From positions 4,928,001-4,992,000 of the forward strand of contig CAVUSO010000001.1 in NCBI GenBank assembly GCA_963744145.1: a stretch of DNA of 64,000 bases, in the 5' to 3' direction. Positions 23,251 to 35,223 of the stretch are shown here, piece by piece (within the stretch, counting starts at the first letter, position 1; each line of letters starts with the position of its first letter). Below the pieces are notes generated by a model. It saw nothing but the letters and a program-made list of their open reading frames with translations. It was not told where the DNA came from and did not search any database. The position numbers and the translations under genes are program-made. The DNA is from an uncultured cyanobacterium (GTDB lineage: Bacteria > Cyanobacteriota > Cyanobacteriia > Cyanobacteriales > CAWUOF01).

Positions 23251-25707
23251 CTAGGGGGAAAGACAGTGAGGTGAGTTTAACCACAGGGAATGAAGCGTTA
23301 AGTTGGAGAGCGCAGCAGTCAATACCACCTCTCCTTGAGGATTCAATTCCCAGCCCGTTGCTTCCAAGATGGGAGACGAAATTAATGATTTAGACTTGCT
23401 CATTGGTCGCGATTCTGCTTTCAGGTGGGACTCACTATGACCCATACCACTAGGACCCAAATCTGCTAGCACAATCTGATGAGCTAAAAAATCTGTTGGT
23501 TGGGGAGCAATTCCACCTCTCCCAGTTAAATAAAAGCTACTCGCTTTAGAGCGATCGCAAGCACTACCCACTAAGCTACTAGCATCAAGGACGGATTTTG
23601 ATAAATTTAATAAGCCTTTACTGGGGTCAAGGTCAGGAGTTTTAATGGCGACTACACCATTGACTCCTAATTGAGAAACTGCCGTAATTTGACTATCGTC
23701 AGAAGTAAATAGTCCTTGAGTAGTGATATCAATATTACCACCTCGACCTTTAACGGCATTAGCTGTAATCTTACTATTTTCGAGGAGAGCTAGGATATTG
23801 GTAGCAATATTGAGGTCTCCACCATTACCATTACCACCAGCAGTAGCAGTAATATTACTACCTCGGCGCAGTTGGATATTTTGCCCTTGCAATAAAATAT
23901 TACCACCTTCACCATTAACCGTAGTAGCATTAATACTGCCCGTATTGTTGAGAAAAATTGAGCCAGCATTGATATTCAGCGTTCCAGCACTACCCGTCCC
24001 CTGATTGTTTACACCAACTAAACCACCATTGAGGACGCTCAATTTAGGAGTATTAATTGTTACACTTCCTGAATTGCCAGTTAGCGTATTAGGTAAGTTG
24101 AATAATTGTTGTACCCCTGGATCAAGAAGCTGGGCAGAAGCCGTAATCTGGGATGGATTCAAAAATCCTACTGCTTGACCATTTACTTCAATAGATTTGA
24201 GCGCATTGATCGTAAGATTGCCAGCATTACCAGTCACAAAAGTTGCAGTAGAAACTTCTCCACCAGCATTTACTGTTAAGGTTTTGGTATTAATGGTTAA
24301 ACTACCACTATTTCCTGAACTGTAACTTGACACTGCCAAAGTGCTGAAATCGTTAAAAGCTATAACTGTTCCTGTTCCGCTCACGTTTATGTTATCTGCC
24401 GAAACCGTTAATTTGCCACCGATTCCAGAGCCAAATACACCATTAATTATAGTGCCTCCTTGTAAAATACTTAACTGGCTCGTTGATATGGTTAGATTTC
24501 CCCCATTTGCCGGACCAAGCGTAAAAGCACCAATATTAGTCGGATATGTGATTACTTGTACAGAGTCAGAAGCATTTATATTAATATCTCCACCTTGGCC
24601 AGTAGCAAAAGGTACAGAATTTATTTGAGCGCCATCTTGGAGCAATAAGCTTTTACTTGTAATATCTATGTTTCCTATATTTCCTGCTGTTAATGTTTGC
24701 TGATACAAGCTACTCGGCACTGTTCCATCTGCGGAAAATCCAATGAATTGGACAGCACCCGATGCCTTAATCGTGATATCTCCTGTCGGGAGAATTCCAT
24801 CATTTTCAATCAACATAGCCGAGCCATTAGTAAAAATTATATTTCTATCTTGTGCCGAAATAAATCCACCACCTTGACTACTGCTAGCATCAATTAATGA
24901 CAGTTGTGATAAATTTATATCACTAAAATTTTGCACCCCTTGATAGTCAAAAATCCATCCCCTTGCGGCAGAATTAAAACTCACATTCCCAGCTCCAACA
25001 CTACCTAACTCAATCAGTCCTCCTGGTGCTGCTAATACACCCCCCTGGATGTTAATCGCACCTCCAATTAAAGCTAAGGATTGACCCTGTGCTACTTGCA
25101 AGATGCTCGAAGGATTTCCTCTCATCAGGTGAGAATAAGTTGCATCAGTAGTTACACCAGAACCTAGACCAGTAACATTAATTGCTCCCGCATTTTGACC
25201 AATCTGTAATCCTACTGGTGTACTAATCGTTAGTAAGGGTGCTGATTGAGGATTACTTGCACTAAATCCAGTTCCATCCGCAAAACTAATCCTATTTGCG
25301 GTACTTGCTAAAAACGACCCACCAAGATTTAACGCTGCATGAGTACCAAAATTAATCCCATTCGGATTGAGGAAAAATAAGTTAGCTGTCCCATTAGCTT
25401 TGAGAATACCATCAAGATTAGAACTAGCATTCCCCGTAACACGAGTGATGATATTCTGGATATCTAAAGCATTATTAAAAAATGCTGTGCCCCCAGTGGG
25501 GATAGAGAAATTCTGAAAACTATGAAATAAGTTGCCCCCGACTTTACTACCACCAGCGATAGTAATCATATTACTATTAGAATTAACCAGAGAGTTGACT
25601 GGCAAAGTCGCATCCGGGACGATTTGTGCTATGATTGGGCTAGCTGAACCTAGTAACGATAAAAATAAACTACCAGTGAGCCAGAGGAAACAATTTTGCA
25701 TTTGCAT
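23251..25707 (-). CDS. Filamentous haemagglutinin N-terminal-domain (TpsA-like) exoprotein, copy 1
   Basis: Signal peptide; AQIVPDATL, NLFHSFQNF, NLFFLNPNGI (TPS domain); Gly/Asn beta-helix repeats; FYLTGRGGI and EATGW C-terminal motifs. Confidence 0.92.
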   Translation of the reverse strand: MQMQNCFLWLTGSLFLSLLGSASPIIAQIVPDATLPVNSLVNSNSNMITIAGGSKVGGNLFHSFQNFSIPTGGTAFFNNALDIQNIITRVTGNASSNLDGILKANGTANLFFLNPNGINFGTHAALNLGGSFLASTANRISFADGTGFSASNPQSAPLLTISTPVGLQIGQNAGAINVTGLGSGVTTDATYSHLMRGNPSSILQVAQGQSLALIGGAINIQGGVLAAPGGLIELGSVGAGNVSFNSAARGWIFDYQGVQNFSDINLSQLSLIDASSSQGGGFISAQDRNIIFTNGSAMLIENDGILPTGDITIKASGAVQFIGFSADGTVPSSLYQQTLTAGNIGNIDITSKSLLLQDGAQINSVPFATGQGGDININASDSVQVITYPTNIGAFTLGPANGGNLTISTSQLSILQGGTIINGVFGSGIGGKLTVSADNINVSGTGTVIAFNDFSTLAVSSYSSGNSGSLTINTKTLTVNAGGEVSTATFVTGNAGNLTINALKSIEVNGQAVGFLNPSQITASAQLLDPGVQQLFNLPNTLTGNSGSVTINTPKLSVLNGGLVGVNNQGTGSAGTLNINAGSIFLNNTGSINATTVNGEGGNILLQGQNIQLRRGSNITATAGGNGNGGDLNIATNILALLENSKITANAVKGRGGNIDITTQGLFTSDDSQITAVSQLGVNGVVAIKTPDLDPSKGLLNLSKSVLDASSLVGSACDRSKASSFYLTGRGGIAPQPTDFLAHQIVLADLGPSGMGHSESHLKAESRPMSKSKSLISSPILEATGWELNPQGEVVLTAALSNLTLHSLWLNSPHCLSP

Positions 25708-35223: not shown

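Follow-up and report, generated by a model that had tools for sequence, protein, structure and literature searches.

Haemagglutinin-like exoprotein genes interleaved with NHLP-type heterocyclase cassettes in an uncultured cyanobacterium: a tandemly duplicated array and a recurrent, possibly functional pairing

In a 64,000-nucleotide stretch of the genome of an uncultured cyanobacterium (hereafter the window; C1:4928001-4992000 of the 7.7-Mb genome, with coordinates given as window positions unless prefixed with C1), genes for haemagglutinin-like exoproteins of the two-partner secretion (TPS) type (TpsA; here FHA1 to FHA3) alternate with cassettes for a peptide made on ribosomes and modified after its translation (RiPP). 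The order is FHA1(-), precursor(+), heterocyclase(+), FHA2(-), cassette relic(+) and FHA3(-), one cassette being intact and one destroyed. Similar pairs of a TpsA gene and a cassette of precursor (PRE) and YcaO-type heterocyclase genes recur in relatives, and in one heterocyclase clade the cassette is, judging from congruent trees, co-inherited with a dedicated TpsA subfamily, usually inside clusters of TPS, CHAT, DUF928 and CHASE2 kinase genes. We tentatively regard the adjacency in the window as another instance of this recurrent coupling, and put a functional link between FHA and RiPP at this locus slightly below an even chance. On self-comparison of the sequence, the alternation of the array is best accounted for by a single, old event of tandem duplication that copied 6,019 bp (23245-29263) comprising an FHA gene, the spacer, the precursor gene and the heterocyclase gene.

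The six TPS-linked heterocyclases formed one clade with a support of 100 in three trees, and this clade spans few lineages (four families, with one genus represented twice). When the TpsA of one linked locus (L123) was used as the query, the best matches in G119, G137, G202, G228, G310 and its own genome were cassette-adjacent genes or tandem copies of them. The cassette-linked TpsAs share 47-59% identity with one another at >600 bits, compared with <=47% for all other TPS genes, and no other genome among the 401 genomes of the order that were searched reached this level. In a tree that included 30 paralogues from the genome of the window, they formed a clade of 10 members (support 100), the branching of which was congruent with that of the heterocyclase tree. 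Outer flanks vary between the linked loci, whereas the arrangement FHA-PRE-YcaO(-amidohydrolase) is constant. TpsA adjacency was found in at least three heterocyclase lineages, and L119, L158 and the window represent three further TPS lineages. TPS adjacency therefore arose several times in the cassette family, which argues for an affinity that is functional or at least regional.

The linked loci have the following gene organizations. In L125, genes for FHA, precursor, YcaO, an amidohydrolase, a TPR-CHAT protein, a small open reading frame (ORF), a CHASE2 kinase-receiver and a receiver-kinase are co-directional, with gaps of 53-1,160 bp. L122 contains FHA, precursor, YcaO, TPR-CHAT, two DUF928 genes and a CHASE2 kinase gene, and L104 and L113 carry the same set with the precursor gene(s) inverted. 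L123 and L124, both in G110, consist of FHA, precursor and YcaO (and amidohydrolase) between unrelated outer flanks, with no CHAT or CHASE2 gene within 10 kb. In the fragmented genome G310, which contains one assembled YcaO gene, TPS and precursor genes form a head-to-head pair in L129, a third, divergent pair in L130 and a tail-to-tail pair with a 62-bp gap in L131; the last resembles a pair in the genome of the window itself (FHA4 and precursor'', see below). The arrangements in G110 and G310 suggest that TpsA, and not the kinase, is the tightest conserved neighbour in that clade. L119 (G310:C132, 9957-12703) contains a radical-SAM gene, four NHLP domains (nitrile hydratase leader peptide type) and a ThcOx gene, followed by an FHA gene 45 bp downstream. 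Its NHLP domains reside in a 220-aa ORF of two fused NHLP-like domains and in two single precursors, and the locus presents a different enzyme set on the same precursor family. In L158, found in a metagenome, YcaO, ThcOx, TPS and CHAT genes are co-directional and the heterocyclase belongs to a distant clade. L120 and L121, from two genomes of the genus of G228, contain a precursor gene with a kinase gene and no TPS gene.

The frequency of the pairing depended strongly on the sample. The first sample comprised the 80 best relatives of the heterocyclase on contigs of one genome per species (50-62% identity; flanks of up to 10 kb, 1.40 Mb in total), and all of these loci with titles are cyanobacterial. 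A TPS protein was found at none of the 80 loci by phmmer with FHA1-3 or with a hidden Markov model made from the TPS domains of the own genome; as a positive control, a phmmer search of the own genome with FHA1 retrieved 56 ORFs. None of the first four loci from relatives of the order contained a TPS gene either. A precursor homologue was present at 18 of the 80 loci. The conclusion drawn from these 84 loci, that the FHA-RiPP link was refuted, was withdrawn after a precursor-based sample, which showed that the first had over-represented kinase-linked clades. For the second sample, a profile of 22 precursors was used, which matched in 75 of the 401 genomes; the 41 best full-length places were taken with 10 kb on each side, and 6 of 40 precursor places duplicated earlier loci, leaving 34 new loci. 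A TPS gene (protein of ~850-930 aa) lies beside the cassette at 7 of these 34 loci, and at all three further precursor contigs of G310. A metagenome scan yielded 46 loci (14 duplicates and 32 new), among which one of the new loci (L158) has a TPS gene. The association with FHA genes that the preliminary description envisaged for homologous cassettes was thus absent from the first two sets of loci and present in part of the later ones.

After removal of 20 loci that were >=99% identical to others, of the extension L133 and of L081 from the own genome, the pooled set numbered 152 non-duplicate loci, each with a precursor, a YcaO of >=300 aa or both. A TPS gene was counted within 4 kb at 11 of the 152 loci and at 10 of the 76 loci with a precursor. 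In the genome studied here, ~7% of the sequence is no more than 4 kb from a TPS ORF; relatives rich in TPS genes hold 29-73 matches. If all genomes were equally TPS-rich, ~5 of the 76 loci would be expected to have a TPS neighbour, and the enrichment by count is therefore only weak.

The placement of the window relative to the co-inherited clade differed between methods. FastTree left the position of its heterocyclase, which sits on a long branch (0.5), unresolved, whereas quick trees by IQ-TREE grouped it with the kinase-linked enzymes of L004 and L089 (SH-aLRT 84 and 94). Under the approximately unbiased (AU) test, a position as sister of the TPS-linked group was not rejected (p 0.22 at a delta lnL of 6.0; this group was named after the tree had been seen). 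On the exoprotein side, FHA1-3 form an own-genome clade (support 100) with FHA4 and one further orphan paralogue, and the best own-genome matches of the cassette-linked TpsAs are other paralogues (349-542 bits), not FHA1-4. The genome of the window contains no match to the dedicated subfamily at E<=1e-150. That the FHA adjacency in the window is homologous to that of the well-supported co-inherited clade cannot be shown from these sequences.

The array has the layout given in the preliminary description, including its head-to-head and ~30-bp tail-to-tail junctions. FHA1 (23251-25707, minus strand) encodes an 818-aa TpsA-like exoprotein with a signal peptide-like N-terminus and a TPS domain at residues 27-277. 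A divergent spacer of 726 bp (25708-26433) separates it from the gene for the 106-aa NHLP-like precursor (26434-26754, plus strand), which is followed by the gene for the fused cyclodehydratase of 792 aa (26862-29240, plus strand). The stop of the latter lies 29 bp (29241-29269) from the end of FHA2 (29270-31729, minus strand), the 819-aa TpsA-like product of which shows 86% aa identity to FHA1. FHA2 in turn is head-to-head with the second cassette across a spacer of 489 bp, of which 31926-32218 represents the duplicated upstream region. The relic comprises codons 1-23 of the precursor gene (precursor', 32219-32287, plus strand), a filler of ~104 nt (32287-32390, minus strand) with 99% identity to 29359-29462 at the 3' end of FHA2 (FHA residues ~758-793, antisense), residues 742-777 of the heterocyclase (YcaO', 32390-32498, plus strand; sharing 88% of nt and 89% of aa with the intact copy) and an internal, once-frameshifted remnant of a ThcOx/SagB-type oxidase gene (32504-32738, plus strand; residues ~241-318 of homologues). 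FHA3 (32755-35223, minus strand) encodes an 822-aa TpsA-like protein with 71% aa identity to FHA1/2 and a divergent C-terminal region of ~120 residues. All three pieces of the previously described relic are therefore present, but it is a patchwork with FHA2-derived filler, and its oxidase piece is internal and not an N-terminus. The FHA1/precursor spacer contains a small palindromic repeat at 25836-25935 (two tandem copies of a CCCCCAACCCCCTTTAAAAGGGGG-type unit and a related arm), which is not found in the duplicated spacer and the exact 24-mer of which is unique to this site in the genome.

Three alignments from the self-comparison trace the duplication: 23245-25772 matches 29264-31792 with 89.7% identity at a period of 6,019 bp, 26141-26493 (upstream region and 5' end of the precursor gene, the part duplicated from the first spacer being 26141-26433) matches 31926-32284 with 73.9% identity, and 29085-29193 matches 32390-32498 with 88% identity. 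These results bear out both the ~290-bp duplicated upstream region and the repeat unit of FHA plus RiPP cassette that had been described. The simplest history, which is based on anatomy and undated, would start from an ancestor with the order FHA / precursor-heterocyclase-oxidase / FHA3. In relatives, the oxidase gene starts 8-30 bp downstream of the heterocyclase gene, so a duplication junction in the short spacer after the heterocyclase stop would explain why copy 1 lacks an oxidase gene and why a trace of one remains in copy 2 only. Copy 2 would then have been wrecked by at least three deletions, one patched with FHA2-derived filler; in this way the oxidase gene probably lost its two ends and the precursor and heterocyclase genes most of their length, with templated filler where the latter two now join. 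No further cassette remnants were found in the genome.

The duplication is old, as judged from substitution levels. FHA1 and FHA2 share 92-98% nt identity at their ends and 71-87% in the middle, and their dS is 0.41 in the middle third and 0.09-0.11 at the ends, a pattern that suggests later gene conversion. The dN/dS ratios of 0.3-0.45 in every pair and segment of FHA1-4 compared indicate that all these FHA genes are maintained under purifying selection. Because the alternation arose by tandem duplication and the second cassette decayed with FHA3 being retained, the array offers no support for the idea that each FHA requires a cassette.

A second locus (L081, C1:4552109-4559035), ~400 kb away in the same genome, also pairs a precursor with this FHA clade. 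Precursor'' (C1:4554703-4555023; 106 aa) is intact, has 45% identity to the precursor in the window and ends in ITGVTC; its integrity at this identity suggests that it is probably still selected. The gene is tail-to-tail with that for FHA4 (817 aa) at a distance of 140 bp and lies 239 bp downstream of a gene for a 1,257-aa PAS-GGDEF-EAL protein. No heterocyclase gene was found near it, and precursor'' might be modified in trans by the heterocyclase of the window.

The precursor matches the NHLP leader model TIGR03793 with an E-value of 7.7e-11 (41.7 bits, below the cut-off of 50.9), and 21 of 22 aligned precursor homologues match this model at E<=1e-3. In the predicted structure (pLDDT 74), a fold spans residues 7-104, with helices at residues 7-39, three strands and two more helices, and the last five residues are disordered. 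For this model, Foldseek ranked alpha chains of nitrile hydratases and an NHLP precursor (8tb1) highest, though weakly (E 0.02-0.08), and a sequence match to 1v29 was obtained with E 1e-5. Conservation among the 22 homologues reaches approximately residue 95, and Cys, Ser and Thr are confined to the last 2-12 residues, which in the window form the short C-terminal tail ...IIVKLCC. No conserved Gly-Gly cleavage motif was found, VGGEGG (residues 63-68) not being kept in 21 homologues, and no signal peptide-like N-terminus is present.

The heterocyclase has the winged helix-turn-helix (wHTH)/RRE, E1-like and YcaO architecture of the PatD/LynD/MusD type and scores well above the cut-offs of PF02624 (YcaO; 338.9 vs 25.7), TIGR03604 (260.5 vs 219.25) and TIGR03882 (171.6 vs 36.9). 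Its full-length matches in PDB are MusD, LynD and TruD (7u58, 4v1t and 4bs9; E 3e-223 to 2e-201), and it retains 145 of 151 near-invariant columns. The C-terminus, however, reads ...LNSFNTFF, compared with LNP[FIY]P.. in 100 relatives (commonest endings LNPFPMWM, LNSFPMWM and LNPFPIFF), both prolines of the NPxP-type motif having been lost. Such a proline-rich C-terminal motif is important in fused cyclodehydratases, and its loss makes the activity of this enzyme uncertain. The best match in the metagenome scan was 62% identical, and no closer relative was found there. The enzyme would dock on the folded NHLP-like body of the precursor and turn its C-terminal Cys-Cys into thiazoline(s) by cyclodehydration. 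ThcOx would then oxidize the product in relatives, where the amidohydrolase might, by analogy with scaffold-peptide pathways, set free a small fragment. At the 18 loci of the first sample with a precursor homologue, the conserved neighbours include a ThcOx-type oxidase (PF22767, PF18679) directly after the heterocyclase and sometimes Amidohydro_2. A flavin mononucleotide (FMN)-dependent dehydrogenase gene is present at 38 of the 76 precursor loci elsewhere; none follows the intact heterocyclase in the window, where its only trace is the remnant in copy 2, and the array contains no oxidase, protease or exporter gene that could serve the intact cassette. An amidohydrolase gene of the own genome at C1:7.36 Mb, the product of which is 56-57% identical to the cluster-linked ones, was dropped as a candidate, as no RiPP genes surround it. 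The only other YcaO gene of the genome lies in a cyanobactin-type-looking cluster at C1:1845896-1858079, a judgement based on ORF sizes and tblastn; its ORFs encode a 782-aa heterocyclase, a 650-aa subtilisin-like protein and a 1,288-aa protein with an oxidase match (38% identity to ThcOx homologues).

FHA1-3 match the TPS domain PF05860 with 203-210 bits (cut-off 33.5) and TIGR01901 with 77-79 bits, and nothing else in Pfam; a weak match to EtpA (8cpk) was also obtained. The NPNG-type motif of the TPS domain is invariant at N114-P115-G117. Residues ~690-818 of FHA1 correspond to a region that is common to short cyanobacterial TpsAs, contains invariant C717 and C815 as well as GRGG and EATGW motifs, and is covered by no Pfam family. 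In total, the genome contains 56 TPS matches in ~54 ORFs. The short type of ~820 aa accounts for ~39 of these ORFs, and FHA genes alone make up at least five tandem arrays. The families of the envelope modules are extremely expanded, as the genome also contains ~47 CHAT-like, 17 CHASE2 and 15 DUF928 ORFs (phmmer), and many TPS genes reside in TPS-CHAT-DUF928-CHASE2 clusters. No CHAT, DUF928 or CHASE2 ORF was found at C1:4.92-5.11 Mb or within 8 kb of FHA1-3 or FHA4; relative to these modules, FHA1-3 are, on this genomic context, 'orphan' exoproteins. The FHA paralogues are mosaic, FHA4 being nearest to FHA1/2 only in its 3' third, with the paralogue at 3.645 Mb nearer in the 5' and middle thirds. 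Only two TpsB (ShlB) matches in the genome exceed the cut-off (C1:0.83 and 7.08 Mb), and no TpsB gene adjoins TpsA in the array or in the TPS-linked loci of relatives. The four intact C39-ABC genes are all at least 190 kb away, and the ABC gene at 2342-4087 encodes no peptidase domain; peptidase, C39 transporter and TpsB genes are thus missing from the array, as had been noted from the sequence.

Across the cassette family, sensor genes are almost always found next to the cassette. A large sensor or TPS gene lies nearby at 60 of the 76 precursor loci, and 10 of the other 16 are contigs of <10 kb. Kinase-STAND-GAF giants were counted at 34 of the 76 loci, Reg_prop kinases at 16 and CHASE2 kinases at 4. 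The giants (1,750-2,030 aa) have a Pkinase-AAA_16-GAF architecture with histidine-kinase, GGDEF-EAL, SpoIIE or AAA_35 outputs, and the second type consists of Reg_prop-Y_Y_Y-PAS-HisKA_2 kinases (Pfam). The sensor-adjoining loci include L004, L016, L027, L035, L045, L082, L084 and L085, and the four loci first taken from relatives of the order have the same kinds of sensor neighbours as the first sample. A large Ser/Thr kinase beside NHLP-Burk clusters is described in the relevant passages of Haft 2010 (PMC2887384), so that the kinase association is not new in kind.

If the FHA genes and the cassette of the window are functionally coupled, the tail of the peptide, once modified, or a piece of this tail would most likely serve as a signal or cofactor in the envelope-sensing pathway of the exoprotein, and exoprotein and cassette would share the divergent control region. 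The repetition of the array itself is a by-product of duplication. Several observations weigh against this coupling, in addition to the absence of TPS genes from the first loci sampled, the weakness of the enrichment and the grouping of the heterocyclase with kinase-linked enzymes. FHA1-4 fall in a clade separate from the cassette-linked TpsA subfamily, and a search for FHA1 orthologues in the 401 genomes returned a flat series of 40-49% identity with no orthologue. Approximately 50 other TPS ORFs of the genome lack a cassette and several of its arrays contain only FHA genes, and G310 has two TpsAs of the dedicated subfamily on contigs of ~9 kb that carry no precursor. The array is antiparallel, whereas most linked loci are co-directional; the second cassette decayed while FHA3 was retained; and the intact cassette, with no oxidase, a long branch and lost C-terminal prolines, may itself be degenerating. 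Furthermore, export takes the exoprotein out of the cytoplasm, in which the RiPP enzymes stay, and we know of no mechanism that would connect them. The functional link suggested in the preliminary description is therefore supported in part: FHA-RiPP pairing is recurrent and co-inherited elsewhere, but the FHAs of the window are lineage-specific and their alternation with the cassettes reflects duplication.

Many of these points fit passive hitch-hiking, in which a cassette that came by chance to lie in or beside an array of TPS paralogues was copied by unequal crossing-over or ectopic recombination, the copies then decaying, with FHA and peptide unrelated. The abundance of TPS genes in arrays that mostly lack cassettes, the mosaic structure of the paralogues (the ends and middle of FHA1/FHA2, and the 3' third of FHA4), the dead second and incomplete first cassette, the absence of TPS genes from the 80 closest loci and the lack of orthology between the FHAs of the window and the cassette-linked subfamily would all be expected. 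Adjacency of this kind is nevertheless seen again in at least three further TPS lineages and at least two further heterocyclase lineages (in one case with co-phylogeny), members of one FHA clade accompany a precursor at two places 400 kb apart in this genome, the second precursor being intact, and the AU test leaves the enzyme of the window as a possible sister of the TPS-linked clade; we therefore regard hitch-hiking as a serious possibility to which we do not quite incline. It is rather unlikely, though worth considering, that the cassette is partnered only with a sensor, a sensory kinase or cyclic-di-GMP protein, and that TpsA comes in through the TPS-CHAT-DUF928-CHASE2 module, the sensor having been lost in the window. 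The kinase counts of the family, the PAS-GGDEF-EAL gene preceding precursor'' and the absence of CHAT, DUF928 and CHASE2 ORFs around the array are consistent with this, but the two G110 loci keep FHA-PRE-YcaO without CHAT or CHASE2 genes, and G310 has bare TPS/precursor pairs. A physical module, in which the modified precursor or peptide binds, rides on or is displayed on the TpsA filament, appears very improbable. The gene neighbourhood speaks for it, and no local exporter or protease offers another exit route; the precursor, however, lacks a signal peptide-like N-terminus and should, by prediction, form a folded NHLP-like domain in the cytoplasm, and in two-partner secretion TpsA must cross the inner membrane unfolded via Sec, with no TpsB gene nearby.

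Functional coupling, if it holds, would join the expanded short TpsAs and their CHAT-DUF928-CHASE2 companions with a widespread NHLP-type azoline/azole family that lacks exporters and proteases, and would point to ribosomal peptides, or small molecules made on peptide scaffolds, as inputs of envelope and cytoplasmic sensor kinases. A bolder and unlikely version is that the heterocyclized NHLP-like tail, or an azol(in)e fragment released by the amidohydrolase, is the signal or cofactor of TPS-CHAT-DUF928-CHASE2 modules and of the other adjacent sensor kinases, the array being a set of exoprotein/peptide pairs in the course of diversification that has recently lost the peptide arm of one pair; such a tail or fragment would be the first candidate ligand class for CHASE2-type receptors. 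If the link is not functional, the array would be a clear example of paralogue recombination that copied, and then eroded, a neighbouring biosynthetic cassette.

Other flanking genes include atpD/atpC and genes for DUF3177, DUF7734 and GUN4 proteins, which are typical of cyanobacteria, and a tRNA at 13283-13355 was the sole Rfam hit in the window. A 676-aa ORF (35648-37678, minus strand) that adjoins FHA3, on the side of the array towards gyrA, has Eco57I-type methylase motifs and an HTH domain of BsuBI/PstI restriction enzymes. A class A penicillin-binding protein is divided between two ORFs 330 bp apart, one for the transglycosylase half and one for the transpeptidase half (50710-51528 and 51858-53099, plus strand), which may represent a split or frameshifted gene, and a 337-aa ORF (53848-54861, minus strand) contains only the middle DNA_gyraseB domain and may belong to a gyrB gene that is split or carries an intein. 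A promoter and terminator scan of 22900-35700 was uninformative (46 promoter-like sequences vs 38.9 +/- 6.0 in shuffles, and 5 terminator-like sequences vs 9.5).

Searches of open-access full text found no paper linking YcaO/NHLP with haemagglutinin/TPS genes and none on TPS-CHAT-DUF928-CHASE2 clusters. In the passages of Haft 2010 (PMC2887384) on export, NHLPs cluster with peptidase-ABC exporters and have a classic Gly-Gly motif before a Cys/Ser/Thr-rich core, which agrees with the export route that the preliminary description gave as usual for NHLP-YcaO clusters. The relevant part of Cox 2015 (PMC4603692) describes cyclodehydratases of NHLP/Nif11 thiazole/oxazole-modified microcins (TOMMs) as clustering with cyanobactin enzymes and the PatA/G proteases as absent. 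The cassette of the window appears to belong with this NHLP/Nif11 TOMM group: its leader is long and resembles nitrile hydratase, its cyclodehydratase is fused and falls with those of cyanobactin pathways, its relatives have a dehydrogenase of the SagB/ThcOx type, and PatA/PatG proteases are lacking. It differs in that no Gly-Gly site is conserved, the core is reduced to a C-terminal tail of 2-12 residues with Cys, Ser or Thr at its end, a peptidase-ABC exporter is missing from the surroundings, sensors or TpsA are the neighbours and the precursor scores below the TIGR03793 cut-off. NHLP-Burk clusters resemble the 34 kinase-giant loci in that a TOMM cassette adjoins a very large Ser/Thr kinase gene, whereas they are betaproteobacterial and have tandem or fused NHLP-Burk precursors, with no TpsA mentioned in the passages describing them.

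With the cyanobactin heterocyclases MusD, LynD and TruD and with ThcOx, the family shares the wHTH, E1-like and YcaO architecture and the ThcOx-type oxidases of relatives, but its precursor is NHLP-like and not PatE-like, no macrocyclase or protease is present and the C-terminus of the enzyme reads NSFNTFF. The exoproteins resemble the TpsA proteins FHA and EtpA in their TPS domain, NPNG-type motif and weak match to EtpA; they differ in their size of ~820 aa, in the ratio of ~54 paralogues to two clear TpsBs, none of which is adjacent, and in a conserved C-terminal domain containing Cys. In comparison with the TPS-CHAT-DUF928-CHASE2 modules, many of which occur in this genome, the FHAs of the window stand apart in having no CHAT, DUF928 or CHASE2 gene within 8 kb, whereas such genes are present in L104, L113, L122 and L125, and the cassette of relatives sits inside such modules, with the TPS gene on one side and the CHAT gene on the other.

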